This document shows positions 41,834 to 64,000 of a stretch of DNA of 64,000 nucleotides, piece by piece. Numbering within the stretch: position 1 is the stretch's first letter; every line of letters begins with the position of its first letter. This DNA comes from an uncultured Nitrospiraceae bacterium (GTDB lineage: Bacteria > Nitrospirota > Nitrospiria > Nitrospirales > Nitrospiraceae): contig CAVPLT010000007.1 in NCBI GenBank assembly GCA_963706325.1, positions 576,001-640,000 of the forward strand, read 5' to 3'. The translations under genes were made by a program, and so were the position numbers. The notes beneath the pieces were generated by a model. It ran no database searches. It was not told the DNA's origin and saw only the letters and a list, made by a program, of their open reading frames with translations.

Positions 41834-44800
41834 ATGGATTCTCATTGGTTCACCCGTGTTACAACACGCGCCCTCAGCGTCATCGCTGGCGGCGCCCTCG
41901 TGTGTCTGCCGCTGGCCGCATCGGCTGAGGATCAGCCGCATGCAAACCATGCGGCGCCGCAACAGACGGCGATGTCACATCAATTGCCGTCGTGGGCGGA
42001 GCAGCTCAAGGGACAGACGATCGTCGAGGACGCCATGGTTGGAAAGCCAGAGCGTTCTGCCATGGTTGAACAGCAACATCAGCGCATCATGGATCATTTG
42101 ACCCAGGATCCGCAGGTGCAGCAGGTGAATACGGGTATGTTCAATACCCAAACCATGATGCATCAGTACGGCGCGGGTGGTCAGGACCTTCTCTTGATGT
42201 CCGACCCCCGGGTGGAGCCGGTGGCATTGACAAGTGGCGGTAAGTGTCCGGCCACCGCTCCTGTGAGGCAGTACAATGTGTCCGCGATCAACGTCGAGAT
42301 CACGCTCAATCAGTGGCTCGATTTCTATCCTGGCTACATGTATACGCTGGATGAGAATCTCGACAAGGTGCGAGCGGAAGAAACGACAAATCGCGAAGCG
42401 CGTGAAAAAGAAGGATTCGATCCAGGTGCGGTGATTCCGGGTGTGCAGGCGCAGTGGATTCAGCCCCTGGCCATTCGCGGTAATCAGGGCGATTGCGTCA
42501 AGATCAAGCTGAGCAATAAGTTAGAAGGCGGGGAGGACGTGAGCCTGCATATCCACGGCTCCAGCATGGTTGTCAGCGCTACCGGTGCATCGGCCGCGAC
42601 GACCAATTCGGATTCGATTGTTGCAAAAGAGAAGAGTGGCGAGTTCGAGTGGTACATCCATCCCAGCACGCAGGAGGGGGTGCGGCAGTTCCACACCTTC
42701 GCCAACGATCGTGAATTGACGGTGATGGGACTCTTCGGTTCCTTCATTGTTGAACCCCGCGGATCTGAATATCTCGAACCATTAGGCACCGGTGATCCTA
42801 CACCAGCGACCAGTGGCTGGCAGGTCATTATCAAGAATGGAACCGGCCCAGATTTTCGGGAATTCGTTCTGATGTATCACGAAGTCGGCGACGAAGCCTT
42901 CCGCCCCGTCAATAAGAAGGGCGACTTTTTGCCACAGCGAGATCCGCTGACAGATGCCTATCGTCCGGGTGGCCGCGCGATCAACTATCGCAGCGAGCCC
43001 TTCGGGATCAATAACATGCATGTGCAACACGAATATTTCGGCTTCGAGGATGAGTCGATGGGGTACAGCTCCTATACCTTCGGCGACGCCTCTCCGACAA
43101 TCCCCCGTTCCTACATGGGGGATCCGGCCAAGTTTAGGCTGGTTCATGGCGGATCGGAAGTATTCCACAGCCACCATCCCCATGGTGGAACTATCCGGTG
43201 GCCGCGGAGTCCTCGGGCCATCGATGACATGAATCTCTGGTCTACCGCTCAGAACGGGCCGGTCAAGTATCCCGTCATCCGTGCCAAGACGGACCGTGTC
43301 GATGTGGAAGTGATTGGGCCGTCAGAAGCCTTGGACCTGGAAACGGAGTGCGGATCGGGCCTCTGCCAGCAATTGGCCGGCGACTTCCTCTTCCACTGTC
43401 ACGTGGCGCACCACTATGTGGCTGGTATGTGGGGCTACTGGCGCGTCTATAATACGATTCAGCAGGGCGACATGCGTAACGACGTCATGCCGGACATGCG
43501 CGAATTGCCGGATCGGAAGGGGCGTATCAGGGCTCCCATCACTTCAGATAAATTAGTCGGTCAGACAGTCGATTGGTTCGGCAAAGCCTTCAAGATCGTG
43601 GAAAAGGGCAAGAGTGATTGGAAGTCCAATCCGGCTACGATCACGATCAAGGACTGGGTTGAAATGCAGCTCCCGACCATGGGCAAGCCAGGGCACAAGA
43701 ATGATGAAAAGGGTCAGATTGTGTCCTATGACGCCACGGTGTTGGACTGGGCTTGGGAAGGCACGCGTGCCTTGAGCGAGACGGAAAGCACTATCGACAA
43801 TCCTAAGTACAAGTCGACCCATCCAGGCAAACGGCATCCGATCACGTTCGAGCCCTTGACCGGCAAAGTTGCCTGGCCCCATCTCACCCCGCACTTCGGT
43901 AAGCGCGTCATGTTCTCTCCGAATCATAGCGGGGCACCTTGGCTAGAAATGATCCGCCGGGAAGCGAATGGCGAGGAGAGCGTCGATCAGGCGTTACCGG
44001 GTGAGAATGGCAATTGGAGCCTCTGCCCTGAGAACGCTGGTCGGAAAAGCTTTAACGTTCACTTCATCAAGCTGCCGATTACTATAGCGAAAAAAACTGG
44101 CAAAGAACCGTCAGTCGTCGACCCGAATGGTTTGATTTATGTGTTACATGAAGAGGAAGCCGACATTCGGAAGAATGACGATCTGAAATATCCGTTGGTT
44201 GTTCGTGGCAACATCTATGATTGTGTAGACTGGACTTTGACCAGTGAATGGGACGACGACGACTATACCAATTTCCAATCGTCGAAGATCAACACCCACT
44301 GGCATTTCCTCCAGTTCGACAACCAGGCATCTGACGGTGTGATCACCGGCTTCTCGTATGAACAGTCTGTGCGTCCGTTCACGATGCTCGAAAAGAAGAA
44401 TCCGAAGGGACTGCCTGTCCCGATGAACACCGTGTTTACCGCGCCGGCCAAGAAGGGCGCAACCACCATCACGGTGAAGAACGCCAAGCAGTACCATGTT
44501 GGCACGTTGATCCTCGTTGGTGCCGACAATGTGAAGGGTAACGAAATTTCCCGCATCAAGGCCATCAACGGTAACACGATCACGCTGGCCAAAGGGCTGA
44601 AGCATGATCACCCTGCCAATGACATCGTGACGGTGGAATTCGTTCGGCAACGATTCTGGGTTGATGCGGATGTGGGGACGGTCTTTTGGCACGACCACGC
44701 ATTCGGAGCGACCACTTGGCCACACGGTGGTTTCGGGACCTTTATCGCGGAGCCGGTTGGATCGACCTATCATGATCCGAAAAGTGGAAAGGCGATTCGC

Positions 44801-46699: not shown

Positions 46700-46729
46700 A
46701 CAAGCCGAATCTCACGAGAGAGGCGCACG

Positions 46730-46761
46730 AAGGGGGGAGCCTGCAAAGGCTCCCCCCTTTT
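46730..46761 (+). terminator. Rho-independent terminator
   Basis: AAGGGGGGAGCCT-gcaa-AGGCTCCCCCCTT followed by TT. Confidence 0.85.
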
Positions 46762-46859
46762 GTTATGGCGTCTCCATTGTGTATGATGAAAACACGTGTT
46801 CAATGTTTTTGTGGATACTCTACGTAATCGACCACATTTTTATTAGTTGGAGGGATGAC

Positions 46860-47768
46860 ATGCGAATGGTCGGCTTTGCCCTGTTGTGTGCCATCGGTGC
46901 CTGCTGGTCGTCGTCGTGGGCCTATGACGAGATCCCGGTCACGGATGGCGGGAGCATTTCCGGTACAGTGACCATGATCGGGGGAAAACCCACCCCTAAA
47001 GGATATAACCTGATCACATTCCCTGACCCTGTCTATTGCGGCCGGATTTCTACCGGGACCGGATGGCGAATCCTTGACGAATTTGCCATGGGTGCCGGTA
47101 ACGGCCTCAAGGATGTAGTGGTCGTGCTCACCGACGCCACGAAGGGCAAACCGTTCAAGTTCGAACCCTTGACCATTGAAGCGCGCGATTGTCGGTTCCT
47201 TCCCTTTGTGACGGTGGTCAAAGACGGAGCAGATGTCGTCGTCATGAACATGGATCCGGTCATGCACGATATCCAGGCCTATGAAACGTCTCAATTGGGC
47301 CCTCGAGTCTTGTTTAATACGCCGCTGCCGATGAATCCCCATCATAAGCGCGTGGTGACCGCAGAGAGCCATGAACATTTGCCCGGCCAGCCGGTCAAGG
47401 AAGAGATTCATATGACCAAGGGCCGGCGTTTGTTTGTTATGCAATGTGGGTTTCATGCCTACATGGAAAGCTGGGGATTCGCGGTGGACAATCCCTACTA
47501 TTCCTTGACCGGCGACGGTGGGACGTTCACGTTGACGGATGTGCCGCCTGGTGAATACACACTGATGGCATGGCACCCCGGCGTTGGAACGACCTTGCAA
47601 AAGACTGTGACGGTTACGGGGAAAGATGTGACAACGGCCGATTTTTCGTTCGACGCGCCCAAGGGACGGCGAAGTGTCCATGAAATCGAAGAGAATCCAC
47701 ACTATGGGCCGGAGTCTTTAGGGAAAGTGGTCGATATTCGTCCCACCTTGCAGCGTCAAGTTCCGTAA
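46860..47768 (+). CDS. Exported cupredoxin/carboxypeptidase-regulatory-like domain protein (paralog 1)
   Basis: GGAGG RBS before ATG 46860; signal peptide; PVMHDI...MQCGFHAYM; FTLTDVPPGEYTLMAWHP. Confidence 0.8.
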   Translation: MRMVGFALLCAIGACWSSSWAYDEIPVTDGGSISGTVTMIGGKPTPKGYNLITFPDPVYCGRISTGTGWRILDEFAMGAGNGLKDVVVVLTDATKGKPFKFEPLTIEARDCRFLPFVTVVKDGADVVVMNMDPVMHDIQAYETSQLGPRVLFNTPLPMNPHHKRVVTAESHEHLPGQPVKEEIHMTKGRRLFVMQCGFHAYMESWGFAVDNPYYSLTGDGGTFTLTDVPPGEYTLMAWHPGVGTTLQKTVTVTGKDVTTADFSFDAPKGRRSVHEIEENPHYGPESLGKVVDIRPTLQRQVP

Positions 47769-47794: not shown

Positions 47795-48727
47795 ATGGCG
47801 CTGAGTCTATCCCGTGTGGTTCGCGTTGCTCTGCTTCTCGCTGCCGTCTGGCTCGGTTCTCTCGTTCCGCCAGCCGATTCCTATGACGTCGTAGTCGTTC
47901 AGCATGGGGGTACGGTCGAGGGTCAAGTCACCCTCGTTGGAGCCGTTCCGGAACCCAAGGGATTCAATCTGATTACCTTTCCCGACCCCACCTATTGCGG
48001 CCGGATCTCAAATGGGAAGGGTTGGCGTTTGCTGTACGACTTCACCGTTGCTTCCGACGGAGGGCTGAAAAATGCGATCGTCACGCTGGAAGGTGTCGAG
48101 TCAGGCAAACCGTTCGATCTTTCGGTGCCGTTGATCGAAGCGCGCGATTGTATCTTTCAGCCGTGGGTTACGATTGTACGGAATGGGCATGCGGTAGAGG
48201 TCGTGAACATGGATCCAGTCATGCACGACATTCAAGGTTATGAAACCTCCCTGGAAGCCGGCGCGCGGGTTCTGTTCAATACCCCCCTGATCCTCAATCA
48301 AAACCATCAACGGGGCAACATTCACGCCATTCATAATCATGCGCCGGGCAAGTCTTTGGTTGGCCCGATCTATTTGAACAAGGGACGCCGCACGTTTTAC
48401 ATGCAGTGCGGGTTTCACGCCTATATGGAAAGCTGGGCCATGGCTGTCAACAATCCCTATTATGCCGTGACGGACGACCAGGGCGCGTTCAAGATTGATG
48501 ATGTCCCACCTGGGATCTATCAGATGGTCGTGTGGCATCCGCAGTCTGGCCCGGGGGTGACGCGGACCATCACTGTCGTTCCGAATGGAAAGACAACGGA
48601 ACAGGTCGCCCTCCCGGCCCCGAAGGGGAACCGGACAGCCTATAGAGTCATGGAGAACCCTCGGTTCGGCCTGGAATCTCTTGGGCATCCCGTGGAGATT
48701 CTGCCGCTGGTGGAGCATCAACACTAA
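47795..48727 (+). CDS. Exported cupredoxin/carboxypeptidase-regulatory-like domain protein (paralog 2)
   Basis: Visibly homologous to 46860-47768 (NLITFPDP.YCGRIS.G.GWR, MQCGFHAYMESW). Confidence 0.8.
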   Translation: MALSLSRVVRVALLLAAVWLGSLVPPADSYDVVVVQHGGTVEGQVTLVGAVPEPKGFNLITFPDPTYCGRISNGKGWRLLYDFTVASDGGLKNAIVTLEGVESGKPFDLSVPLIEARDCIFQPWVTIVRNGHAVEVVNMDPVMHDIQGYETSLEAGARVLFNTPLILNQNHQRGNIHAIHNHAPGKSLVGPIYLNKGRRTFYMQCGFHAYMESWAMAVNNPYYAVTDDQGAFKIDDVPPGIYQMVVWHPQSGPGVTRTITVVPNGKTTEQVALPAPKGNRTAYRVMENPRFGLESLGHPVEILPLVEHQH

Positions 48728-48758
48728 TTTAGAACGAAGCGACCTCGCGCTGTGGATA

Positions 48759-49373
48759 TTGGCAAGTTGCTTCTCGCTGAGCCTATGTCTGGCTACCGGT
48801 CTTCGCGCAGCTGATCAACTGGACTCGCCCGAGCCGCCGATTGCTAAGCAGGCAGAGTTTTCAGGGACATTGGTGAAGCGGGTGGAAGGGCGTCGCTTCG
48901 AGGCTCAAGTGTATGCCAAGGGCGACCGACTGCGTCTGGAATATAAGTACGCCCTGAAGACGGACCTGGGATATTCCAGCATCGAAATTATTTGCTTGGA
49001 TAGAGGCGAATCTTGGTTCTTGTTGGCTCAGCGCCGCCAAATACTTCCTGTTCCTATTAAATCCGACGACATCCTGCCGATTCAACCGGGTCTCCCCGGA
49101 GAAGAAAGTAGAGCGCTGGTGGGTGATGCCACGACGATCGGTCGCCCGTCGAAACTCTACGAGGTGCGAGTGGATTATAACGGGCGGAACGAACGATTTT
49201 ATGAATGGGTGGATGTGGAAACAGGGGTTGTATTGAAATTGGTGAGCCAAGATCGAGAGTGGTCCGTAGAGTATCTGCGTATTCGATTCTCCCCCCAGCC
49301 AGCCTACTATTTTGACGAGCCGACGGGGTATAGGCGCTGGGTACCGACATCTACTTCACAAGAACGAGGGTGA
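48759..49373 (+). CDS. Hypothetical exported protein (LolA/DUF4412-like beta fold)
   Basis: Signal-like stretch followed by a beta-rich domain (KGDRLRLE, EWVDVETG, FDEPTGY); start uncertain. Confidence 0.55.
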   Translation: MASCFSLSLCLATGLRAADQLDSPEPPIAKQAEFSGTLVKRVEGRRFEAQVYAKGDRLRLEYKYALKTDLGYSSIEIICLDRGESWFLLAQRRQILPVPIKSDDILPIQPGLPGEESRALVGDATTIGRPSKLYEVRVDYNGRNERFYEWVDVETGVVLKLVSQDREWSVEYLRIRFSPQPAYYFDEPTGYRRWVPTSTSQERG

Positions 49374-49406
49374 TGCGCCGGGCCGCGACTCTCATTGAGG
49401 CATGCC

Positions 49407-50858
49407 ATGCATTTGAAGGCGAGTGCGAGTGGGGCTCGGAAGTCGGGCGGATGGATGGCGCTGATGATCATCTCGGGGGCGCTGGTGTGTCTCTGGCCAT
49501 CTGCCGCATCGGCGCGTTCGGTAAAGGAGGCTCAAGGGGCGTTTGACAAGAAGCAGTATGAGGAGGCGCTGGACCTGATCGAGCAGATTGTCAAAGAGAA
49601 GGGGCCTCAGCCAGAGATGAGGCGGCTCAAGATTCGATCCCTCATTCATGTGGGCAAACCGAAAGACGCGCTGGCTGAATATGATCAGCTGACACAAGGA
49701 CTTACGCAGGACGATCCGGTTCTTCTCAGAGAATTGGGAATAGGGTTTGCCACGGTCCTGGTGAAAGACATGCGGGAGCAGATGCGAGGCGCGGCCTATA
49801 CGGCTCTTAAAGATGTGGATTCTCCCGAAACCATCCCCTTCCTGGAAGACGGGTTGAGTGATGGGTCAGGCTTGGTGCGAGCTCTGGCGGCAGAGGCGTT
49901 GGGGAAACTCGAAGCCGGTCGGCGTTCGCCGCGATTGCGCAATGCTCTGGAGGACCAAGCGGGATTGGTGAAGGCGACCGTGCTGAAAGTGCTGGGAAAG
50001 AGCGGCGATCGATCCGTGATCCCGCTGCTTGAGAAGGCTCTGAAGGACGAGCAGCCGGTCGTGCGCTTGGCGGCCGCCGGGGCGCTCTACCACATGGGGC
50101 AGACGGCGATGTGGGAAACGGTTCGTCAGGCGGCATCGGCGCAAAACCCAGAAGAGCGAGCCACGGCACTCCGCTTGGTTGGAGAGTTGAAGGACGCGCG
50201 AGGGTTGGAGATTCTTTTGGAGGCCGTCACCCATGCGCAACCTTCCGTCAGAGGCGCCGCTGCCTCCGCCTTGGGAGATCTTGGGAAAGTGCAGGGAATT
50301 CCAGCCTTGGAGCGCGCTCTTGAAGACAAGATTCCAGCCGTCAAGACGTCAGCGGCGATCAGCCTAGGAGAATTGGGCGTGAAAGATTCTCTGGTTCCAC
50401 TGAGGAAAGCGCTGGTGGATCCAAACCCTGTGGTGAGGGCTGCAGTGGTATCGGCGCTGCTGCGAGTGGGAGAACCGTTTGAAGCGGTTGGGCCCGAGCT
50501 GTATGAATTGGCTCAAAACAATGATCCGGGAACTCGCTCCGCGGTCGGCAAAGCCGTGGGTCGCGCCCATGGCGTCAACCGGAAGGCGGGCATCGAATTC
50601 CTCGCCGGCATGTTGAAGGATCCCATTCCCCGCCCTCGCATTGCGGCGGCTCGCGCGCTTGGACAGATCGGAGGGGCTGACGTCCTACCGATCTTGAAAG
50701 CGTCGCTGCGCGATGAAGATGATGCCGTTCGTGCGACTGCGGGGGGAGCGATAGCCCGAGTTCTCGGACACACAAAATTATCAGGTAATTCAGCGAAAAT
50801 TGTGAGCGTCCAGGTGGCTGGATTTCAAGTTGACAGTGCGAGTAAGATTCCAGTATAG
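49407..50858 (+). CDS. Exported HEAT-repeat protein with N-terminal TPR-like segment
   Basis: Signal peptide; about ten PBS-lyase-type HEAT repeats (L..AL.D....VR.AAA.ALG). Confidence 0.88.
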   Translation: MHLKASASGARKSGGWMALMIISGALVCLWPSAASARSVKEAQGAFDKKQYEEALDLIEQIVKEKGPQPEMRRLKIRSLIHVGKPKDALAEYDQLTQGLTQDDPVLLRELGIGFATVLVKDMREQMRGAAYTALKDVDSPETIPFLEDGLSDGSGLVRALAAEALGKLEAGRRSPRLRNALEDQAGLVKATVLKVLGKSGDRSVIPLLEKALKDEQPVVRLAAAGALYHMGQTAMWETVRQAASAQNPEERATALRLVGELKDARGLEILLEAVTHAQPSVRGAAASALGDLGKVQGIPALERALEDKIPAVKTSAAISLGELGVKDSLVPLRKALVDPNPVVRAAVVSALLRVGEPFEAVGPELYELAQNNDPGTRSAVGKAVGRAHGVNRKAGIEFLAGMLKDPIPRPRIAAARALGQIGGADVLPILKASLRDEDDAVRATAGGAIARVLGHTKLSGNSAKIVSVQVAGFQVDSASKIPV

Positions 50859-51005: not shown

Positions 51006-51800
51006 ATGAAGGGTGCGATGAAAATAGTATTCGGCGTTGCGGCCGCAGCGTTTCTGGCTGCGCCCCTCGCCTCGTTTGCCGGCGGCACGATAGCCGGTAA
51101 GGTGACGTATGCAGGGAAGGCGGAGCAGAAGGAATTTCTCTTCTCGAAGTTTCCGAATCCAAAGTTCTGCCCCAAGAACCCGAACAAGGCCCTCATGGAT
51201 GGCGATAAGCGCTTCCTGAAGACCATAGAGGTGGGTAAAGACGGCGGATTGAAAAACGCCATTGTCTCTGTGGTTGACGTCGAGGATCAGGCTTTTATGG
51301 ATGGCTATAAGGGCGTGGATGTCGTTGCAGAGTTTTGCGAATTCCTGCCGTTTTCCGGAGTGGTGGTCAACAACAAGAATTTTCGCGTAGAAAATCATGA
51401 TGCTGATCCCGATGACCCCAAGTCCACCTTGGGCGTGCTCCACAACCCGCACAGCTTTGTGGTGAAGGGTTCCAGCTCCGCCACCGGTTTCAACATCGGT
51501 TTGGCGAAGAAGGGTGATAAGTTAGAGAAGCCCGTACAGTTCCGCGGCGGTGCCGAAAAGACCGGCTTCTATCGCTTGCAGTGCGACCAGCATGAGTTCA
51601 TGCAGTCCTTCTTCCTCCCGGTATGGAATCCGTACCATGCCGTGGTGAAGGACGATGGATCGTTCGAGCTCTCTGGTGTTCCAGCCGGGAAGCACAAAGT
51701 GGTGGTTTGGCACCCTGCTGTCGGCAAGGGTAAGCTGAATGAATTCGAAGTTGAAGTTCCGGAAGGTGGAGCGGCCACTTTGAAGGCTGACCTCAAGTAA
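51006..51800 (+). CDS. Exported cupredoxin/carboxypeptidase-regulatory-like domain protein (divergent paralog 3)
   Basis: AAGGAGG RBS; signal peptide ending SFA; VLHNPH...LQCDQHEFM; FELSGVPAGKHKVVVWHP. Confidence 0.8.
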   Translation: MKGAMKIVFGVAAAAFLAAPLASFAGGTIAGKVTYAGKAEQKEFLFSKFPNPKFCPKNPNKALMDGDKRFLKTIEVGKDGGLKNAIVSVVDVEDQAFMDGYKGVDVVAEFCEFLPFSGVVVNNKNFRVENHDADPDDPKSTLGVLHNPHSFVVKGSSSATGFNIGLAKKGDKLEKPVQFRGGAEKTGFYRLQCDQHEFMQSFFLPVWNPYHAVVKDDGSFELSGVPAGKHKVVVWHPAVGKGKLNEFEVEVPEGGAATLKADLK

Positions 51801-53798: not shown

Positions 53799-53821
53799 AG
53801 GCGGATAGCCGGAAAGTAGAC

Positions 53822-54310: not shown

Positions 54311-54402
54311 GATGAGGCGTAAGTCTTGAGAGCGGTGTGAGGAACGCGGCAGTCATCGTCTCCTTCCTCGTCCAAAAGCTTCCTATTCCCAACGGATGAA
54401 AC

Positions 54403-55488
54403 ATGTTGCACCGGCTGGCACTACGAGTTCTTCCGAGTTTGACCTTAGCCGTGACGGAAGACTCAGTCCGCAAGCGCAAGCGTCTGGTCATGTTTGTTCC
54501 TGGGTTGGTGGCCTTCGCGGTATACCGAGCGGCCAAACAGGGATTTTCATTAGCGGAGCCTATGACCTTGTTGCTCCTGAGCGGCCTGATATCGATGGTG
54601 ACGGCTCTCTGCGCCTATCGTGTTGGACGCGGATTGCCGTTCGCCAGATTGGTCGGCGCGGATGGTGCTCGACGCATCGGGTGGGTCCTGGCCTGGATAG
54701 GTTTTGTCTACGGCATTCAACTCTCGCTGTTGGTGTTAGCCCTGTTGTGGCTGGTCGGATATGATTATGCCCAGCATCCTGATGGACCGGCCATGATGGC
54801 GATCATCATTCCCAGTACCGCAGTCGCGCGCGATGCTTTTGAGATCGGGTACATTCGCTGGCTTGAATCGAGTGGGCGTCCACTGCTCACCTTTCCCGAT
54901 GGCGCCGGACTGCGCACTTTACTTCAGCGGGTCAGTCCCGACTTGTTGGGTTGGATTGTCGGAGGGGCACTCGCTTGCGCAAGCCTGTCCGTTCTGACGA
55001 GCATTTTCATACGCGGCGAGCTGGCGGTGTTGACCCAAGGAACCATCGTCACAGTGGCGGCGGGAACCGTGGCTCTCCTGGCGTTTTTCGCCGGGCAATC
55101 CAGCGGAGGCGCGTGGTTCTCCAGGGTGACCGCGACTCGTTGGGGAGAGCTGATGAAGTTTTGGTGGTGGCCTGGGCTCGCCTTCGCCGCTACGTACTAT
55201 CTGGTGCTGCTCGGAGGCTGCCTGTATATGTTGAAGCGACCGATGGATTCGATTGGACTCTTCGCCGGGGTCGCCGGAATGGTGGGTGGGCTGATGGCGT
55301 TGTACTGTTATTATTTGGGCCATCGACGAGAGATTGAGAATCGCCAGCAGGGAGCCGTATCCAGCGCCTTGTTACGTTGTCCGTTCGTAATGGGGATACT
55401 CGGCAAGTCTCGCGAGGCGATTTCTGGTCCGGCGTTAAATGGATCTGCGGCTGTCTATGACAAGGACAGTGAGAGAGTGTCGTCATGA
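54403..55488 (+). CDS. Hypothetical multi-pass membrane protein
   Basis: About eight hydrophobic segments; HPDGPAMM; C-terminal LLRCPF; overlaps the start of the next gene (ATGA). Confidence 0.7.
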   Translation: MLHRLALRVLPSLTLAVTEDSVRKRKRLVMFVPGLVAFAVYRAAKQGFSLAEPMTLLLLSGLISMVTALCAYRVGRGLPFARLVGADGARRIGWVLAWIGFVYGIQLSLLVLALLWLVGYDYAQHPDGPAMMAIIIPSTAVARDAFEIGYIRWLESSGRPLLTFPDGAGLRTLLQRVSPDLLGWIVGGALACASLSVLTSIFIRGELAVLTQGTIVTVAAGTVALLAFFAGQSSGGAWFSRVTATRWGELMKFWWWPGLAFAATYYLVLLGGCLYMLKRPMDSIGLFAGVAGMVGGLMALYCYYLGHRREIENRQQGAVSSALLRCPFVMGILGKSREAISGPALNGSAAVYDKDSERVSS

Positions 55489-57353
55489 CCACAGGCCTTT
55501 CGTTCCGCTCATGCATCCTTCTGTTGGTCTGCGCAGGACTATTGGTCGCAGGGGCGAGCCTGCTGAATCCCAAACCGCTCGGCGCAGCGGGTCCGTCCAG
55601 TGATGTGTATTTTCAGACGCCCGGCGTGCCTAGTGGTCCCTCGGCCCCTGCGGGGAATGAGAGCCACTATCCTCAGTATGGCTCAGTCGACAGTCGGTTG
55701 CTCATGTGGATCATCATTCAACAGCATACTTATTTCGGTGGCTTTGTGTTGGCGTTGCCGATTTTTTGTGTCCTGCTGGAATTTCTCGGGCTGGTGGCGA
55801 AAAATCCTGGGCTCGCATTGCGCTATGATGGCTTGGCTCAAGATCTCCTGAAGGTCGCTCTCCTTGCCATTTCCGTCACTGCGGCGGTGGGAAGTGTGAT
55901 GTTGACGATGTTCATCACTCTGTATCCCAGTTTTATGCAGTATATGGGAGGGACCTTTAAGGTCATGATGCCTCTCTATGCACTCGTGTTTGTCGGGACC
56001 ACTTTTCTCACGATCGCCTATTATTATAGTTGGGATCGTATGGCGGCACGTGGGACGAAGTGGTTGCATCTCTCGATCGGCCTGCTTGCCGTGGTGTTCG
56101 GCACGTCGCTGCTACTGCTCGCCAATGCCTGGTCGGCCTTCATGATGGCGCCGGCGGGTGTTGATGGCCAAGGCCGGTATTTGGGCAACCCCTGGCATTT
56201 GCTCCATTCCGCGCTGTGGAACCCGTTGAACCTGCATCGGTTTTTGGCGGATATCATGTCGGGCGGAGCAGTAGTCCTCGCCTATGCCTGCTACCGGTTC
56301 TTCACCGGCAAGAGCGAGGAGGAGCGCGCCTACTACGATTGGGTCGGCTACATCTTTTTATTTGTCACCGTGTGCGCTCTGCTGCCGATGCCCTTCGCTG
56401 GCTATTGGTTGATGCGTTCCGTGTATGCGTACAGCCAGAGCATGGGTGTCACGATGATGGGCGGGCTCTTGACCTGGCTGTTTGTGGTGCAAGCGCTCTT
56501 AATCGGCGCGCTCTTTCTCGGCGTCAACTATTATCTGTGGCAAAGTATGGGGCGGATTCGGGGGGGGGAGCGGTATCAATCCTACTACCAATATCTCCTG
56601 CTCGCTCTCACGGGTTGTCTGTTTATTTGGCTGACCCCCCACACGATTCTCATGACCGGCACTGAAGTGAAAGCCATGGGCGGGGCTCAGCACCCCGTGA
56701 TTGGAAACTATGGCGTGATGTCGTCAAAGAATGGGGCAGTCAATGTGATGATCTGCATCACGGCTTTGAGCTATATCTACTACCGTCGGGCGAATCGCAG
56801 CATGACGATTTCCTGGGTGAAGACTGGGAACATCATCCTGGGGGCATTGTTCGGCCTCGGAGCCGCGCACAATATCGGATTATCAGTGTACGGATTTTAT
56901 CTGCCGGCCAGTCTCCGCGTGGGGCTGTCTGGACCGCAGGCGGTGACGACATTGCTGGTGGTTACATTGGGATTGCTGTTGAATCGGCGCATGCTGCAGG
57001 GCGCAACGATTCACGGCCCAGTGCAGTGGGGGCGGATTTCGGTCCGGGGCATGATCGGATTGTTTGGATTGGCAGCGGCGTTTACCTGGGTGATGGGGTT
57101 AATGGGATACATTCGCTCTTCAGGGCGGCTGGCGTGGCATGTCAACGAACTGATGCCAGATACCTCTCCCTGGGCTTTCACACCATCGCTTGGATTTGCC
57201 GCGAAAATGGTCACCATCAACATGGTTGTTTTTTGGGGGGCTGTGTTTATTTTGTTTTGGGTTTGTCAGCGTGGTCGGCAACCGGTCATGCATGAAGAGG
57301 TGATCGCGGAAAAGGAGCCGGGTTTCTTACCCGCTGCCTCGCATGAGGGATAG
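55485..57353 (+). CDS. Cytochrome bd-like oxidase subunit I, paralog A
   Basis: CydA-like QQHTYFGGFVLALP, ANAWSAFMMAPAG, NLHRFLA; many TM segments; no Q-loop. Confidence 0.85.
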   Translation: MTTGLSFRSCILLLVCAGLLVAGASLLNPKPLGAAGPSSDVYFQTPGVPSGPSAPAGNESHYPQYGSVDSRLLMWIIIQQHTYFGGFVLALPIFCVLLEFLGLVAKNPGLALRYDGLAQDLLKVALLAISVTAAVGSVMLTMFITLYPSFMQYMGGTFKVMMPLYALVFVGTTFLTIAYYYSWDRMAARGTKWLHLSIGLLAVVFGTSLLLLANAWSAFMMAPAGVDGQGRYLGNPWHLLHSALWNPLNLHRFLADIMSGGAVVLAYACYRFFTGKSEEERAYYDWVGYIFLFVTVCALLPMPFAGYWLMRSVYAYSQSMGVTMMGGLLTWLFVVQALLIGALFLGVNYYLWQSMGRIRGGERYQSYYQYLLLALTGCLFIWLTPHTILMTGTEVKAMGGAQHPVIGNYGVMSSKNGAVNVMICITALSYIYYRRANRSMTISWVKTGNIILGALFGLGAAHNIGLSVYGFYLPASLRVGLSGPQAVTTLLVVTLGLLLNRRMLQGATIHGPVQWGRISVRGMIGLFGLAAAFTWVMGLMGYIRSSGRLAWHVNELMPDTSPWAFTPSLGFAAKMVTINMVVFWGAVFILFWVCQRGRQPVMHEEVIAEKEPGFLPAASHEG

Positions 57354-57371: not shown

Positions 57372-58040
57372 GTGGAGATGAGTATGAGATTGACGGTCGG
57401 AGTCGCATGGGTTGTGGCGGTGATGGGGTGGTGTGGCCTCACGGGAGTTGGAACGCCGGTGCATGCTGCCGAAGCCAAGGTGTTGGTGCTGGAAGACTTT
57501 CAATCGGCGGATCAGGATGGCTTCCCGATCGATTGGCAACATGAAAATCAGCGCAGCCAAGCCAAGGGCAGGGACGCCTACAAGATTCAATCATCTGACG
57601 GACAGAAGTTCCTTGCCGCCAAAGATGCGGGCCAGCGCGTAAAAAAGCGCAAAATCGATTGGGATCCGAAGGCCTATCCGGTCTTGACGTGGCGGTGGCG
57701 GCTGCATAAAGCGCCGAGCGGTTCGGAGCCCATTGCGGCGCTCTATGCCTCTTTAGATACGGATCTCCTATTCATACCGGTGTTCACCAAATACATCTGG
57801 AGTGCCGGGAGGCCGGAAGGCACCTTCATCGAGGGTGGGATGTTCAGCGGGTCAGAATTGGTGGTGCAAAGCGGCCTGTTGCCTGTCGGCGAGTGGATCG
57901 AAGAACGCATTGATGTCTATGAAGACTTCAAGCGCATTCACAAGCATGAGCCGGCAGAAAAGGCGTGGGGGATTTCTCTGTTTGCCGCTCCCGGCGTCGA
58001 GATCGACTTCGGCACAATTGCAGTGAGTTCTGCCAAGTGA
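57372..58040 (+). CDS. DUF3047-like exported protein
   Basis: Signal peptide; YPVLTWRWR, KYIWS, GEWIEERIDVYEDF. Confidence 0.7.
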   Translation: MEMSMRLTVGVAWVVAVMGWCGLTGVGTPVHAAEAKVLVLEDFQSADQDGFPIDWQHENQRSQAKGRDAYKIQSSDGQKFLAAKDAGQRVKKRKIDWDPKAYPVLTWRWRLHKAPSGSEPIAALYASLDTDLLFIPVFTKYIWSAGRPEGTFIEGGMFSGSELVVQSGLLPVGEWIEERIDVYEDFKRIHKHEPAEKAWGISLFAAPGVEIDFGTIAVSSAK

Positions 58041-58083
58041 GCACGCGCGTCGTCGTGACGGGTCTAAGGAATCGATCATCACT

Positions 58084-58476
58084 ATGAGCCGACCGTGGAC
58101 CAAGACCTGGCTGGATGTCGTGTTTGGTATGGTGGTTATGGGCACGGTTGGAGCATTGATTGGCACGATCTTGGGTGGCTCCTCAGTTCCCATCACGGCT
58201 GGATTGGGAGTCGTACTCGGCGCCATGGTCGGCTTTCTCGGAGGGCGTCGGTTCCTGTTGAGTATCTTGGTGGGGACGGTCCTGGGCGGCCTGCTGGCGT
58301 GGCTCGTTGCGGAGTTTGACAAGATTTTGTACGGTGCTGGAGCCGGTGCGGCTATGGGTGGATTTTTGGGCGTGCAGATTTCGATGTTACTGGATATGCG
58401 AGCGGCGCGGAGAGCAGCGGCTGTAGATGCGAGCGCTGAAGATCTCCCAGCTCAATCGACGGTCACCAAATCATGA
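58084..58476 (+). CDS. Small Gly-rich membrane protein
   Basis: Four glycine-zipper TM segments. Confidence 0.7.
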   Translation: MSRPWTKTWLDVVFGMVVMGTVGALIGTILGGSSVPITAGLGVVLGAMVGFLGGRRFLLSILVGTVLGGLLAWLVAEFDKILYGAGAGAAMGGFLGVQISMLLDMRAARRAAAVDASAEDLPAQSTVTKS

Positions 58477-58491
58477 GGTGCGAGTAGTCTA

Positions 58492-59406
58492 ATGGAAAAC
58501 AGGGGCGTGCTTATTGGGTCGATCATTTTTGTGTTCGCATCGTTCATTTTGATGATCGGGGCGCTGGTTTACGAATCGTATAAGGCCAAGCAGATGCGCC
58601 AATTAGCACTATCTATCACGACAGAGACGAAGGCGGTGGAGGTGTCTACCGCTCAGGACTTCTCTATGTATAAGACGCTCATTGGAGACGACGGGCGAGG
58701 GATGGTTCAAATATCCGAGGGCCCGTTCGTGATGGGCAGTCGTGATAATGATAGTGATCCGGACGAAAAGCCGGAGCATCAAGTCTATTTGAAGCCGTAT
58801 TTCTTAGATAAGCATGAAGCGACGCAGGAAGCGTATGCGCGATTTTCGAAGATGACGAAGCGGCAGACGCGAAAGATCGAGGTGTTTGAAGGCGATCCTG
58901 CCAAGTTGCTCAAGCCGGAAAGCCCGATGATCGCCGTGACGTGGGATGACGCGGAGGCCTATTGTAAGTGGGCAGGAAAGCGGTTGCCGACCGAAGCGGA
59001 ATGGGAGAAGGCCGCGCGCGGGGAAGGCAAACGCCGATATCCTTGGGGCGAGGAGTTTGTGGTGGGCTATGCGAACATCGACGGGGATGAGGATGGGTTT
59101 CGATACCTGGCGCCACCTGGGTCGTTCGAGTCTGGCCGCAGCCCTTACGGGATCTACGATATGACGGGGAATGTCGGTGAATGGGTCGCGGACTTTTATG
59201 ATGAGAACGCCTATCGAAAATCGGCATACCGGGATCCGAAGGGACCAGAGCAAGGCGAGCAGCGCGTCATTCGTGGAGGGTCCTGGCGGGAAACCAAGCG
59301 GAACGTGCGCTCCTCCAAACGATTTCAGGCAAAGCCGTGGCGGCACGATATTACGGTCGGGTTCCGTTGCGCCAAAGATATTGAGGCTGATGGGCCGGCC
59401 AAGTAG
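58492..59406 (+). CDS. Membrane-anchored FGE-sulfatase (SUMF1/EgtB/PvdO) fold protein
   Basis: N-terminal TM helix; RLPTEAEWEKAARG, DMTGNVGEWV, RGGSW, GFRC. Confidence 0.9.
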   Translation: MENRGVLIGSIIFVFASFILMIGALVYESYKAKQMRQLALSITTETKAVEVSTAQDFSMYKTLIGDDGRGMVQISEGPFVMGSRDNDSDPDEKPEHQVYLKPYFLDKHEATQEAYARFSKMTKRQTRKIEVFEGDPAKLLKPESPMIAVTWDDAEAYCKWAGKRLPTEAEWEKAARGEGKRRYPWGEEFVVGYANIDGDEDGFRYLAPPGSFESGRSPYGIYDMTGNVGEWVADFYDENAYRKSAYRDPKGPEQGEQRVIRGGSWRETKRNVRSSKRFQAKPWRHDITVGFRCAKDIEADGPAK

Positions 59407-59417
59407 TCGGTCAGGTC

Positions 59418-60380
59418 ATGCTTGAAACACGATTCAAAATTATCTTCCTCGTCGTCGTGTTGTTTGCCGCAAGCTTGCCCCTCATAGCCATCCTTCGCGG
59501 AACGATTTCCACTCCGTTTGAAGCTGAGCCTCCGCATGGGGAAGAAAATTCTGGGTGGCCTTCCGCTGAGCCGGAAGTCGTGGAAGAGCCTATCGCTGAG
59601 GAGCTTATCCCAATTCCTGCGGGCCCGTTCGTGCGTGGAACGAATGGAGGGGGATTTGATGAGCGTCCTGAACGGACGATTTACCTCGATGGTTTTTTTA
59701 TTGATCGTTACGAAGTGACGAACGCCCAATACGCCGCCTTTGTGAAGGCAACGGGCCATCGAAAATCAGGGCCACCATCACGCTATGCGAAAAATACAGC
59801 CCGTATGCGAGGAGTGAACCAGCCGGTTGTCTATGTATCCTGGGAGGATGCGAAAGCCTACTGTGAGTGGCGTGGTAGACGATTACCTACTGAGGCGGAA
59901 TGGGAAAAGGCCATGCGTGGTACGGATGGCCGTCTCTGGCCATGGGGTAATGTCGAAATCCAGGATGGGGCGAATTGGGCCCGTGTGGATGATGGTTTTG
60001 AAGTTGCCGCACCGGTAGGTCAAGTGCGGAGTGATGTGAGCCCCTATGGAGTCATGGATGGCGCTGGCAATGTCATGGAGTGGGTGGATGATTGGTATCA
60101 GGAAAACGCGTACGCTGGGTCTTTGGAGAGAAATCCGGCAAGTCCAGAGTACGGCACGTACAAGGTGCTGCGCGGAGGGGGGTATACGAGTTCTGGGTCG
60201 GACTTGCGCATTACGACACGCAGCAAGATGATGCTGGATTTTCGAGATGAAACCATCGGGTTTCGCTGTGCGCAATCAGGTGCGGGGAATGGTGGCTCGC
60301 AAGGGGGAAGGGTTTCGGGAAAATCGCAGGAAATCACAGGAAATCAAAGTAGTAGAGGATCAGGAACACGGCCAAAATGA
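59418..60380 (+). CDS. Second membrane-anchored FGE-sulfatase fold protein
   Basis: N-terminal TM helix; RLPTEAEWEKAMRG, GNVMEWV, RGGG, GFRC. Confidence 0.9.
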   Translation: MLETRFKIIFLVVVLFAASLPLIAILRGTISTPFEAEPPHGEENSGWPSAEPEVVEEPIAEELIPIPAGPFVRGTNGGGFDERPERTIYLDGFFIDRYEVTNAQYAAFVKATGHRKSGPPSRYAKNTARMRGVNQPVVYVSWEDAKAYCEWRGRRLPTEAEWEKAMRGTDGRLWPWGNVEIQDGANWARVDDGFEVAAPVGQVRSDVSPYGVMDGAGNVMEWVDDWYQENAYAGSLERNPASPEYGTYKVLRGGGYTSSGSDLRITTRSKMMLDFRDETIGFRCAQSGAGNGGSQGGRVSGKSQEITGNQSSRGSGTRPK

Positions 60381-60382: not shown

Positions 60383-60411
60383 TTGACAACCATTCCAGCC
60401 AAAACTATAAT
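60383..60411 (+). promoter_or_regulatory. Perfect-consensus sigma70 promoter
   Basis: TTGACA (60383-88), 17-nt spacer, TATAAT (60406-11). Confidence 0.85.
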
Positions 60412-60536: not shown

Positions 60537-60656
60537 ATGATGGAAGCTGCTCAGGGGGACGTCTCAATTAAAATCGGCAAAATGATTTTCTATATCACCT
60601 GTGCAATGGGTATTTGGTTTTTCTATTGGATGGCAGGGATTCAATGCCCTTGCTGA
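60537..60656 (+). CDS. 39-aa single-TM peptide (not in ORF track)
   Basis: GGGAG RBS; MMEAAQGDVSIKIGKMIFYITCAMGIWFFYWMAGIQCPC*. Confidence 0.65.
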   Translation: MMEAAQGDVSIKIGKMIFYITCAMGIWFFYWMAGIQCPC

Positions 60657-60707: not shown

Positions 60708-60830
60708 ATGGGCCAAACAATTGTGTATTTCATCGTATCCGTGTTGATATGCGTCACGTTTTTTACGGCCGTTGATCACTTTTTGATGGATGCGCAAGGA
60801 TTGGATTTTTGGTATCTCTTGCGGAAGTAG
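60708..60830 (+). CDS. 40-aa single-TM peptide (not in ORF track)
   Basis: GAGGGG RBS; MGQTIVYFIVSVLICVTFFTAVDHFLMDAQGLDFWYLLRK*. Confidence 0.65.
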   Translation: MGQTIVYFIVSVLICVTFFTAVDHFLMDAQGLDFWYLLRK

Positions 60831-60888: not shown

Positions 60889-62808
60889 ATGGGCTCTGTA
60901 ACCCGCACGAAGTTGATGTCGGTCATGGCGCTGTGCGCGATGATTGGCCTTCTCCTTCTGCCCGTTCTGGTTGCGATCCCTGCCCTTGCCAGCGACAGCG
61001 GCGCGCCAGCGGCTGGCGTGAAAAAAGAGGGTGGTGATGCAAAAGTTGAGAAGGGCAAGGATGTTTATTATAAGACGGAAGGGATTGTTTCTGGCCCTCC
61101 GGCTCCTAAGACGACCGATAGCGAAAAGGACTATCCTCGTTACAACTTCGAGAGCCGCGTTCTTCTTTGGATTGCCAATCAGCAGCATCTTTACTATGGC
61201 AGCTTCGTGTTGGCCGTCCCCATTTTCTGTATGATCATCGAGTTCATGGGTGTTGTGAGCAAGGATAAAGCGTTAGCCAAGCGATACGACCAGCTGGCCT
61301 ATGATTTTATTAAGATCAGTTTGACGGCGTATTCCTTGACGGCAATTCTGGGCGGAATTCTGATCTTTACCTTTCTGACTCTCTATCCCGCCTTCTTCCA
61401 ATATCTGTCCGGTATCTTTAGGCCGGTCATGCACATCTATGCATTGATGTTCGTGGCAGAGAGCGGAACTCTCTACATTTATTATTATGGTTGGGACAAG
61501 ATGAAGGAGGGATTCCTGAAGTGGATTCACCTCAGCATGTCCGTAGTCCTGAACGTTATCGGAACGGTCTTAATGTTCCTGGCGAACTCGTGGATCGGCT
61601 TCATGATGTCGCCGGCAGGAGTCGATGAGCAGGGACGGTTTCTCGGCAATATCTGGCACGTGATCCATACTGCCCTGTGGAACCCTCTGAACTTGCACCG
61701 TATTCTCGGCAACATGGCGTTTGGTGGTGGCGTCGTCGCGGCTTATTCCGCCTACCGGTTCCTGTCGGCTAAAACCGATGAGGAGCGCGCTCATTATGAC
61801 TGGATGGGCTACATCGCCATGGCCCTCGGGGTGTCGTTCTTGATCCCATTGCCATTCGCTGGCTATTGGTTGATGCGCGAGGTCTACGCCTATCGGCAGC
61901 AGATGGGTATCACCTTGATGGGCGGGTTGCTAGCCTGGTTGTTTATTATTCAGGCAACCATGATCGGCATTCTATTTCTCAGCACCAACTACTATCTTTG
62001 GCAGGCGCTCGGCCGGATGCGCGGTGCGGAAAAGTATCAACGGTACATTAAGTATCTTGTTTTCCTGCAGACTTGCGGTTTCTTAGTCTTTATTACCCCG
62101 CATACGATGGTGATGTCTCCGGCTGAATTGAAGGCCATGGGTGGTCAGCAGCACCCGGTGCTTGGTAACTATGGTGTTATGTCGGCCAAGAACGGCGGCA
62201 TCAACGTGGTAATCACGACAACCATATTGAGCTTCGTGTGGTATATGCGAGGCAATAAGATCTCCACGGTGTCGTGGTCAAAGTTCGGCAATATTTTCAT
62301 GGGCTGCTTTTTCTTCTTTGCCTATCTCAATATTATCTTGCTGGCCATTTACGGGTACTACATTCCTGCCAACGTACGCGTAGGGCTTTCTGTGCCACAG
62401 GTGGCGACCACGTTATCTTGCCTGTTCTTCATGTTTGCGCTCAACAGCGTCATGATGAAGGGTGCGAAGCAAATGGGTCCTATTGAATGGGGTAAAATTT
62501 CCGTTCGATCGCAGTATGCACTCATCATGTTGGCAACAGCCTTTACATGGATGATGGGGCTGATGGGATATATCCGGTCGTCTGTCCGCCTGTTTTGGCA
62601 CGTTAATGAGATTATGCGCGACAACTCTCCGTGGGCTTACACGCACACGGTCGGTTTTGCTGCGAACATGATCTCTTTCAACGTGTTGTTCTTCTGGACC
62701 ACCATCATGTTTGTATTTTGGTTAGGTGCCCTCGCGGCCAAGAAGGCTCCAGTCGAGGCAAAGGCAGCTGTGCCTGGAAGAGCGACCGCCCCTGCGGTCG
62801 GCCACTAG
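60889..62808 (+). CDS. Cytochrome bd-like oxidase subunit I, paralog B
   Basis: AAGGAGGT RBS; QQHLYYGSFVLAVP, ANSWIGFMMSPAG, NLHRILG; colinear homology with 55485-57353. Confidence 0.88.
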   Translation: MGSVTRTKLMSVMALCAMIGLLLLPVLVAIPALASDSGAPAAGVKKEGGDAKVEKGKDVYYKTEGIVSGPPAPKTTDSEKDYPRYNFESRVLLWIANQQHLYYGSFVLAVPIFCMIIEFMGVVSKDKALAKRYDQLAYDFIKISLTAYSLTAILGGILIFTFLTLYPAFFQYLSGIFRPVMHIYALMFVAESGTLYIYYYGWDKMKEGFLKWIHLSMSVVLNVIGTVLMFLANSWIGFMMSPAGVDEQGRFLGNIWHVIHTALWNPLNLHRILGNMAFGGGVVAAYSAYRFLSAKTDEERAHYDWMGYIAMALGVSFLIPLPFAGYWLMREVYAYRQQMGITLMGGLLAWLFIIQATMIGILFLSTNYYLWQALGRMRGAEKYQRYIKYLVFLQTCGFLVFITPHTMVMSPAELKAMGGQQHPVLGNYGVMSAKNGGINVVITTTILSFVWYMRGNKISTVSWSKFGNIFMGCFFFFAYLNIILLAIYGYYIPANVRVGLSVPQVATTLSCLFFMFALNSVMMKGAKQMGPIEWGKISVRSQYALIMLATAFTWMMGLMGYIRSSVRLFWHVNEIMRDNSPWAYTHTVGFAANMISFNVLFFWTTIMFVFWLGALAAKKAPVEAKAAVPGRATAPAVGH

Positions 62809-62896: not shown

Positions 62897-64000
62897 GTGA
62901 TTGAACTCATTAAAGCGGGCATGGCAATGGGATGGCCTGCATTGGGGCTTCTGGTTGCCCTCTTGTTCTATTTTAAATTTTCCATTTCCGATCCTGCTGC
63001 GAACAAACGAGCAGTCTTCAAGACGTTCATCGGGATTTTGGCCACCTTTCTCCTCTTTATGGCGATTGCCAATTACAAGATGAATTTCTTTGAAGAGTCG
63101 CGGCTTTTGCCCGTTTCTCTCGTTTTGATCACTTGTACGGCATTCATGATGGCGCTCTATTTTACGAATCTCAGCTCCTTGCTGAGGATCGGTGGTTTCA
63201 TGTTTTTCATCGGCGCGGCCCTTTCTGGTTATGGCAATTGGCTGCCGCAGGTCGAGGGAGGGTTTCCGCCCGTTGAAGAGAAGAAAGACTTCAGCAACAT
63301 GCCGCAAACTGAGCTTGCTGACGAAGGTGAGAAAATCATTTTCGGCGGAGTTGGACAAAATAAAGTTCAGGGTGCCATTGGTAAGGGGCAGTGTCCTCTG
63401 TGTCATGCCTTCCACAAAGGGATGTTGGGAGAGCGCGCACCAAACCTGGATGGGCTGCCGGAGCGGGCTGGAACCCAAATCGGAGATGCCAGGTACCATA
63501 AAGGTAATCCTGCCGCTCGGGATTCCAACCAAAAGGAAGCGTTTCCTGGTTCCGGCACCGCTGAAAATGCTCAGGAGTACATTGCGGAATCTCATTCATG
63601 CCCAAGCTGCTTCGTTGTTGCAGGATATGGTGTCAAAGGCACAAACGACAAGGAAAGCCCCATGCCGGCGATCCATAAGCCGCCAATTTCATTGTCCCTG
63701 CCAGAGCTGGCTGCCGTCGACACCTGGCTGTATGTGCGTGAAGGGCGTGAGGCTCCAAGTTTCGATGAAATTGTCAAATCGTATGAAAAATTCATCCCTG
63801 AATCGGATCGCCCAAAGCCTCCTACGGAGGGCGATGCAAAGCCTGGAGCCAGTGCTTTGATGGCCGATGGGACGGAGCCAGTTGATCAGATTTTTGCGAA
63901 AGGCCAGTGTGTAGCTTGCCACACCATTCCTGGTATCGCCGGTGCCACAGGGACTATTGGTCCGAAGTTGGTTGAGGGGACTAACGCACCGCTTAGGATT
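62897..64000 (+). CDS. Membrane-bound c-type cytochrome with at least two hemes (runs off window end; not in ORF track)
   Basis: GGAGG RBS and GTG at 62897; manual translation gives about four TM helices, then CPLCH (~63392), HSCPSC (~63593) and CVACH (~63908); open to the window end. Confidence 0.88.
   Translation, partial: MIELIKAGMAMGWPALGLLVALLFYFKFSISDPAANKRAVFKTFIGILATFLLFMAIANYKMNFFEESRLLPVSLVLITCTAFMMALYFTNLSSLLRIGGFMFFIGAALSGYGNWLPQVEGGFPPVEEKKDFSNMPQTELADEGEKIIFGGVGQNKVQGAIGKGQCPLCHAFHKGMLGERAPNLDGLPERAGTQIGDARYHKGNPAARDSNQKEAFPGSGTAENAQEYIAESHSCPSCFVVAGYGVKGTNDKESPMPAIHKPPISLSLPELAAVDTWLYVREGREAPSFDEIVKSYEKFIPESDRPKPPTEGDAKPGASALMADGTEPVDQIFAKGQCVACHTIPGIAGATGTIGPKLVEGTNAPLRI

Follow-up and report, generated by a model that had tools for sequence, protein, structure and literature searches.

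A cluster of copper, haem and membrane protein genes lies in the window analysed here, a 64,000-nucleotide stretch of DNA from an uncultured Nitrospiraceae bacterium (assembly GCA_963706325.1, contig CAVPLT010000007.1, positions 576,001 to 640,000). The likely working unit of this cluster is an operon at 60383-67123, reaching past the window end, which encodes two mini open reading frames (mini-ORFs), a cytochrome bd-like protein (bd2) and three membrane cytochromes c. We give an even chance to the reading that bd2, the three cytochromes and the two mini-proteins form an O2 reductase fed by cytochrome c or a cupredoxin. We put it forward because a His19-type site and E107 are kept, the quinol site is lost, expression is high and the operon is present where nitrite oxidoreductase (NXR) is not found. 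The question addressed is the route by which Nitrospira passes electrons from nitrite to O2 and into reverse flow. The cluster is already published in nitrite-oxidising Nitrospira and is not a discovery here. Our additions are modest: a block headed by a multicopper oxidase (MCO) is separable from the rest, a second bd-like protein (bd1) probably does not pair stoichiometrically with bd2, and two conserved mini-proteins are candidate subunits.

The structural model of bd2 (predicted local distance difference test, pLDDT, 90) has the CydA fold, aligning with 7ose_A over 355 residues (Z 35.4, root-mean-square deviation, rmsd, 3.7), and the protein matches PF01654. Residues were compared in a sequence-based alignment with the canonical CydA of the source genome, loose in the middle and quinol stretch, with the canonical positions numbered as in E. 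coli CydA. H100, H270 and E191, the equivalents of H19, H186 and E107, are kept in 23 of 23 bd2 copies, and the His19 equivalent in all 44 copies of bd1 and bd2; at the E107 position, 2 of the 21 bd1 copies, that of the window among them, carry Thr. The quinol positions K252 and E257 are both Met in every copy of either protein (23/23 bd2, 21/21 bd1). The marks of a canonical quinol-oxidising cytochrome bd (qOR), namely K252/E257, E99, E445 and a cydB partner, are all lacking, and neither protein carries CXXCH, as in OR-N and unlike OR-C. H182 and H586 occur in bd2 alone. The bd2 model has 13 long helices in residues 77-624, which together with an N-terminal hydrophobic helix, maybe a cleaved signal, make 14; a crude hydropathy count gives 11-12.

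bd2 shares with the OR-N family, probably OR-N2 (10.1101/2021.01.16.426971; PMC12342949; 'TO_1' of PMC9040806), the CydA fold, the missing quinol site, a subunit I free of haem c motifs, about 14 helices and His19. Such proteins are treated as OR-N or 'TO' oxidases of putative function (Murali 2021, Kop 2024, Kop 2025, Yu 2022, Bayer 2020). Two further bd-like genes lie on C1 of the source genome; compared with bd2, the bd-like_2-type copy shows 42% identity and the bd-like_1-type copy 30%, and a FastTree phylogeny, in which root and long branches are unsure, places bd1 and bd2 in a clade of their own apart from both. The OR-N1/OR-N2 'CydAA'' pair of Kop 2025 would correspond to the other cluster, at C1:1232225-1242139, with bd1 and bd2 as a separate clade.

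Natural fusions of bd-like proteins to cytochrome c bear on the electron donor. CXXCH is present in 5 of 32 long bd-like representatives, and one of these, P0170, matches the di-haem cytochrome of the operon at E 4e-14, which supports a physical partnership; P0170 and P0185 carry the bd-like_2-type His pattern. With the Met/Met columns, these fusions bear out the proposal, made in a preliminary description of the window from its letters alone, that the bd-like proteins lack quinol-binding residues and are likely fed by c-type cytochromes. The di-haem cytochrome also contains, besides its two CXXCH motifs, an invariant His-x-Cys-Pro-x-Cys (residues about 231-238; window 63587-63610; 22 of 22 copies), possibly a disulfide or a metal site.

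The two mini-ORFs upstream of bd2 were missed in the preliminary description and are clearly coding. Both are present in 20 of 20 loci, and mini-ORF 1 in 22 of 22. Relatives of mini-ORF 2 are encoded by 334 of 355 pattern matches in GTDB genomes; among the best 80 of these 334, mini-ORF 1 precedes mini-ORF 2 in 78 of the 79 loci with enough DNA, always ending in Q-C-P-C, and bd2 follows mini-ORF 2 in 76 of 77. Variation in mini-ORF 1 is 0.304 at third codon positions and 0.022 at second positions. Both mini-ORFs occur with the operon in two relatives that are 98-99% complete and give no NXR match (G093, G144). In these NXR-less relatives (L027:2355-2492, L028:8181-8321) the tail of mini-ORF 1 is His-bearing instead of Cys-Pro-Cys.

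CydX, CydH and CydS are small subunits of canonical cytochrome bd. The mini-ORFs resemble them in being single-helix proteins of about 30-40 residues encoded within an oxidase operon; they differ in lying upstream of subunit I and in the Cys- or His-bearing tail of mini-ORF 1. In a three-chain model of bd2 with both mini-proteins, mini-ORF 1 scored 0.53 against 0.00 for the best control, contacts agreed to at least 87% and partner pLDDT was at least 70. The mark for this complex score was reached by 116 of 157 solved pairs and 2 of 215 mismatched pairs, scores at 0.60 or under accounting for only 18 of the 157 and both mismatches. The model thus weakly supports binding of mini-ORF 1 to bd2, and its score may reflect likeness to solved bd complexes. 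Neither mini-protein matched a Pfam-type or NCBIfam family, Atlas matches for mini-ORF 2 were unnamed clusters scoring below 0.9, none of the 32 long bd-like representatives carried the mini-ORF motifs as a fusion, and databases list both as hypothetical proteins. We found no description of them in the literature, although subscription papers and supplements could contain one. In the RefSeq-based expression table of PMC6606698, the mini-proteins are absent: 8 of 10 tags are given for this stretch of the Nitrospira moscoviensis genome, and NITMOv2_3644 and _3645, the mini-ORFs by position, are the missing ones.

The beginning of the operon is marked by a promoter-like site, and a TTGACA-17-TATAAT-type pattern is present in 78 of the 78 loci with sufficient upstream DNA. 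Elsewhere in the cluster, hairpins with U-tails are strong in 2 of 10 folded intergenic stretches, after the MCO gene and after that of the third cupredoxin-like protein (cup3), with a weaker third after bd2 (z -2.09); several transcription units had been proposed earlier, and the two strong hairpins agree with this. In generic scans, terminators (23 found, 21.0 in shuffles) and promoters were at chance level. A structured RNA found no support: folding of the 5' leader of the operon was no better than in shuffles (z -0.55), and Rfam gave 0 matches in the window. Upstream of the MCO gene, a stricter promoter scan did not list the site at 41644..41672, and the ten MCO upstream regions yielded no sigma54 pattern (0/10) and no conserved leader. 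Contigs from RNA runs (4 of 24 runs), which cannot reveal a single transcript, strand or level and come from runs covering small shares of the stretch, are not used as proof: X1 covers 60453-60821, X2 spans 60769-61035 and none lies over 59400-60246.

Published work places the cluster in a known context. In Nitrospina, Kuenenia and Nitrospira, a bd-like oxidase is accompanied by an alternative NxrC, cytochromes c with one or two haems and two cupredoxin-like proteins (PMC3578206, Fig. 6), and Lücker 2013 (PMC3578206) also notes the MCO and discusses haem and copper carriers, reverse electron flow and a role of the MCO in defence against reactive oxygen species. The NXR-associated genes described there from Nitrospina, Ca. 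Nitrospira defluvii and Kuenenia resemble those of the window in the bd-like oxidase without Q-loop, the cytochromes c, the alternative NxrC and the cupredoxin-like proteins; the MCO is found in the aerobes and, unlike in the window, is lacking in Kuenenia. In Kuenenia the same gene run is kustd1713-1709 (Hu 2019, Chicano 2021). Mundinger 2019 (PMC6606698) names the pair bd-like_3 and bd-like_4 and places the proposed terminal oxidase, bd-like_2, in a separate cluster with complex III, the counterpart of which in the source genome is C1:1232225-1242139. With linkage and a mechanism both set out in PMC3578206 and PMC6606698, the earlier view of an undescribed module does not hold.

The closest locus, NITMOv2_3640-3660 of N. 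moscoviensis (alt_NxrC_2, two cytochromes c, bd-like_3, bd-like_4 and MCO; PMC6606698), has the same genes in the same order at near-identical lengths, and nothing material differs. We mapped its published transcript levels onto the window by gene order and length, the locus being confirmed by L101; the values represent transcript, not protein, in one species under one growth condition. In reads per kilobase per million (RPKM), bd2 stands at 2645, the di-haem cytochrome at 3243, the mono-haem cytochrome at 2602, alt_NxrC_2 at 4743, cup3 at 4348 (rank 20) and the MCO at 1922, and the remaining 12 tabulated cluster genes all lie at 154-443: the first two cupredoxin-like genes (cup1, cup2) and the 'LolA' and HEAT genes at 185-208, the middle genes at 154-443, bd1 at 262 (PMC6606698). 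The drops coincide with the two strong hairpins and the rise with the promoter at 60383, which argues for three high-level units. Among the four bd-like genes of N. moscoviensis, bd-like_3 is the most transcribed (2645 against 1167, 816 and 262 RPKM; PMC6606698), as expected for main-flux respiration.

Of the three cupredoxin-like proteins of the window, cup3 stays with the bd-like genes and is the candidate mobile electron carrier. None of the three matched a Pfam cupredoxin family, yet the preliminary description was right to call them cupredoxins: the His/Cys/His/Met site of a type-1 cupredoxin is kept in 55 of 55 aligned copies, and the model of cup3, the only one folded (pLDDT 93), matches amicyanin and plastocyanin best (amicyanin 1sfd, E 6.3e-05, TM 0.61 by target). 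cup1-type copies number two in this genus and in family f2, and one in several other relatives. A fifth cupredoxin-like paralogue (L128:1163-2113; C3:51163-52113) is separated by 2.4 kb from the genes for the NXR-type beta and alpha subunits.

In the proposed mechanism, soluble NXR, or another periplasmic donor in the NXR-less relatives, would reduce the haem b domain of the alternative NxrC, perhaps via cup3. Electrons would then pass through the five c-haems to the haems that bd2 binds through His100 and His270 (the His19 and His186 equivalents), O2 would be reduced at the His100 haem, and protons from the cytoplasm would pass Glu191. The membrane helices of the cytochromes and the two mini-proteins may take the place of CydB, CydX and CydH. 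The MCO would burn electrons from its substrate at its own trinuclear site, independently and with no energy conserved, and bd1 with the middle genes may be low-level accessory or maturation factors. The analysis narrows the target for purification to the products of 60383-67123 including the two mini-proteins, with cup3 as the likely carrier; the MCO and bd1 can be left aside. A more specific form, in which the highly expressed bd-like_3 complex is the main Nitrospira terminal oxidase, a six-subunit enzyme of bd fold fed by cytochrome c in which mini-proteins replace CydX and CydH, and in which mini-ORF 1 uses its periplasmic Cys-Pro-Cys tail (rich in His in the NXR-less relatives) to hold or deliver copper where cup3 docks or at the O2 site, is improbable as a whole.

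Several points weigh against an O2-reducing bd2 complex. In the sequence alignment, Tyr replaces E99 and Ser replaces E445, although both glutamates are missing from the other OR-N copies too. Two His (421, 569) of the bd-like_2-type copy at C1:1237768 are absent from bd1 and bd2. The genome holds other oxidases, namely a canonical CydA, a frameshifted cbb3 gene and the bd-like_2-type cluster with complex III at C1:1232225-1242139. We found no OR-N enzyme among solved structures and, in the literature examined, no report of activity or of a purified OR-N enzyme. The module is kept in anaerobic anammox bacteria, where it is down-regulated along with NXR (PMC3578206; Hu 2019, Chicano 2021), and PMC3578206 and PMC6606698 name bd-like_2 as the terminal oxidase and favour reverse electron flow for the copy studied here. 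As an observation on the cbb3-type gene, it is fused (ccoN plus cytochrome c domains; C4:978320-981176, L130:820-3676) and split over two overlapping frames near the ccoN end, by frameshift or assembly error.

The published proposal of reverse electron flow is the strongest rival, and we regard it as possible but unlikely: the bd2 complex would be a membrane anchor of NXR that pushes nitrite electrons uphill to quinone, in the manner of alternative complex III, and the other bd-like cluster would reduce O2. Conservation of the module in anammox bacteria and the lack of the additional His pair seen in the bd-like_2-type copy speak for it, as do the next matches of the bd2 model after CydA, ActF (Z 23.0, rmsd 3.6, 321 aligned) and PsrC (Z 14.9); the likeness to ActF, however, may be common to every CydA. 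Loss of the quinol-binding residues means that a new quinone site would be required, the bd2 transcript is threefold above that of the proposed terminal oxidase, and the operon occurs where no NXR was found. As a side observation, the matches of this model (m8d63ac11442e) to ActF/ActC of alternative complex III and to PsrC, at Z 23.0-14.9, suggest that the CydA and NrfD-type folds may be related.

Reduction of NO by the bd2 complex, or protective scavenging of O2 or NO without energy conservation, seems improbable. The complex occurs in anammox bacteria, whose central intermediate is NO, the automatic RefSeq name of the di-haem protein in N. moscoviensis is 'nitric oxide reductase', and canonical bd enzymes handle NO (Kop 2024/2025). 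Yet the Kuenenia genes drop 4.7- to 7.7-fold when NO replaces nitrite (Hu 2019/Chicano 2021), and the bd2 model has no match to a haem-copper or nitric oxide reductase fold above background (Z at most 6.8).

The MCO and its neighbours bear on the single chain of the preliminary description, running from a substrate through the MCO and cupredoxins to the di-haem cytochrome, a bd1/bd2 dimer and O2 or NO, for which the middle genes would supply assembly factors. The MCO keeps its copper ligands H445, H448, H450, H521, C522, H523, H527, M532, H822, H824, H953 and H955 in 22 of 22 full-length copies. With roles assigned from MCO motifs, the type-1 (His, Cys, His, Met) and trinuclear (8 His) sets are complete. 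An enzyme with type-1 and trinuclear copper passes substrate electrons internally to O2. Because all 12 ligands are kept, the MCO likely reduces O2 itself as an independent oxidase, and it would therefore be a poor first step of an energy-conserving chain, a point made in Yu 2022. It resembles Bacillus MnxG (PDB 9bxa) in its permuted order of copper motifs, but is 400 residues longer and flanked by cupredoxins, and it scores 130.3 bits against a cut-off of 3100 for the MnxG equivalog NF041487. Nitrifier MCOs are regarded as putative, unconfirmed MnxG (Saunders 2022; 2025 biofilm study). Candidate substrates are Mn(II), a different metal or a cupredoxin in its reduced form.

Of the 35 genomes with a match, 20 were compared for gene order over 20 kb around bd2. 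The run cup3-MTase-DUF420-PCP_red-TM361-bd1-DUF3047-TM130-FGE-FGE-bd2-cytochrome is arranged identically in all 20 loci. The linkage of MCO and oxidase assumed earlier holds in part: the MCO-cup-'LolA'-HEAT block stands directly before the bd block in 10 of these loci; in the remaining 10, at least 5.8 kb of upstream DNA is free of it. By coordinates in all 36 relatives, 18 are linked, spanning two families, 11 unlinked, 6 undecidable at contig ends and 1 without an MCO match. The block is intact but relocated in G034, G087 and G102, in the last of which, a closed genome, it lies 1.2 Mb away; in the closed genome G090 only MCO paralogues of 55-59% identity were found. Across the phylum, bd-like matches occur in 53 of 151 genomes and MCO in 36, all in three families (23/23, 10/10, 2/2, plus G000), and 17 members have a bd-like protein but no MCO match, with at most three MCO candidates scored per genome (all 15 in G090). 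The blocks are separable and probably function independently; adjacency in half of the relatives may still reflect some functional tie, a further point against the reading we prefer.

Genomes with amoA account for 9 of the 10 unlinked loci and none of the 10 linked ones; detachment is seen in all 9 amoA-bearing relatives and 1 of the 11 others, probably one ancestral event rather than a statistic. These comammox-type genomes, in which the adjacent MCO block has been relocated or lost, offer a natural comparison for the role of the MCO.

A stoichiometric bd1/bd2 dimer is unlikely. The bd1 and bd2 transcripts of N. moscoviensis stand at about 1:10 (262 and 2645 RPKM), a ratio that speaks against a 1:1 dimer; moreover, the two NXR-less relatives that keep the bd2 operon lack bd1. 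The single chain is very improbable; high transcription of the MCO, cup3 and the bd2 operon in N. moscoviensis and the linked relatives speak for it, but cup1 and cup2 are about 10-fold below the MCO, and the complete trinuclear site and the unlinked loci stand against it.

Features of the cluster, in window coordinates; entries beyond 64000 lie past the window end
Feature	Position	Strand	Basis
sigma70-type promoter-like site for MCO	41644..41672	+	relaxed TTGAC...TA-type pattern, 10/10 MCO upstream regions
MnxG-like periplasmic multicopper oxidase (MCO), 1621 residues	41834..46699	+	PDB 9bxa MnxG, E 1.5e-73; Pfam MCO
terminator-like hairpin after MCO	46729..46764	+	z -5.37; 0/200 shuffles fold as well
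cupredoxin-like protein 1 (cup1), travels with MCO	46860..47768	+	C-x2-H-x2-M plus upstream His
cupredoxin-like protein 2 (cup2), travels with MCO	47795..48727	+	ligand motif, synteny
exported protein, DUF4412-like look-alikes	48585..49373	+	no Pfam match; Atlas look-alikes 0.95-0.98, unnamed or DUF4412-type
TPR/HEAT-repeat protein, final gene of movable MCO block	49395..50858	+	Pfam (HEAT), synteny
cupredoxin-like protein 3 (cup3), amicyanin-like fold, stays with bd block	51006..51800	+	ligands, model; 20/20 loci
terminator-like hairpin after cup3	51833..51875	+	z -3.83
O-methyltransferase, DUF420, PCP_red-domain protein, 361-residue membrane protein; low-expression accessory genes	52084..55488	+	Pfam; 20/20 loci; 154-443 RPKM
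bd1 (bd-like_4), duplicate of bd2	55485..57353	+	52-54% identical to bd2; one clade with bd2 (FastTree)
DUF3047, 130-residue membrane protein, two FGE-fold proteins; low-expression accessory genes	57372..60380	+	Pfam, synteny
perfect TTGACA-17-TATAAT promoter-like site heading bd2 operon	60383..60411	+	12/12 matches
mini-ORF 1, 38-39 residues, one membrane helix, ends Q-C-P-C; predicted small subunit	60537..60656	+	
mini-ORF 2, 40 residues, one membrane helix with D-x3-M-x2-QGLD; predicted small subunit	60708..60830	+	
bd2 (bd-like_3), OR-N-type CydA homologue without quinol site	60889..62808	+	CydA fold, residues
membrane di-haem cytochrome c	62897..64000, gene ends 64210	+	homologue fused to bd-like proteins in P0170, P0185
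mono-haem cytochrome c	64263-65300	+	
alt-NxrC-type protein	about 65345-67123	+	

The cluster comprises 19 co-oriented ORFs on the + strand from 41834 to the window end, including the two mini-ORFs; the run of more than 22 kb of copper, haem and membrane protein genes described before was found in place. Named homologues of the window genes are Nitrospira proteins. Pfam matches in 41834..64000 are MCO, HEAT, O-methyltransferase, DUF420, PCP_red, Cyt_bd_oxida_I (twice), DUF3047, the FGE-sulfatase fold (twice) and cytochrome c. Of the labels given in the preliminary description, HEAT, DUF420, DUF3047, FGE fold, bd-like and cytochrome c agree with these, and 'LolA-like' found no Pfam match; that gene, the exported protein at 48585..49373, probably starts near 48720. 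Its description of the cluster as an island fared less well: GC is 0.50-0.58 in the cluster and 0.54-0.60 in the remainder of the window, and the MCO is present in 35 of 36 other searched genomes of the class, so a genomic island was rejected.

The cluster continues beyond the window to C7:643123 with the di-haem cytochrome, the mono-haem cytochrome and the alt-NxrC-type protein (di-haem, EB_dh domain), followed by mobA. NXR-type alpha and beta genes lie on C3, the name NXR following from matches to type II dimethyl sulfoxide reductases, and no match to amoA was found in the source genome. About 14-15 kb past the operon (C7:656850-660732, L127), genes for a zinc-finger-like protein, a ferredoxin, a TorD-like chaperone and a soluble NxrC-type protein correspond to the remaining part of the published cluster. 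At a distance of 15-19 kb upstream, a run (window 22437-26963) contains tatC, an Mrp/NUBPL ATPase gene, moeA, mobB and a multihaem cytochrome c gene; the tatC-moeA-mobB run and the mobA directly after the alt-NxrC gene are likely molybdoenzyme maturation genes.

An APC-family transporter gene (window 39698-41512, - strand) is divergent from the MCO gene. Two further giant MCO paralogues are found in the genome, at C7:373296-378179 and C1:63410-68518 (75% and 66-68% identical), the one on C1 being followed by a cupredoxin-like gene and FGE-fold genes. A close orthologue of the window MCO was not found in six of the amoA-bearing genomes, and several amoA-bearing genomes carry two neighbouring distant MCO paralogues of 53-56% identity (L023, G090:C1:685307-697166; also G027, G041, G068 and G135). 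The FGE-fold proteins belong to a large paralogue family with about 15 loci in the genome, several of them beside MCO or DUF4412-like genes.

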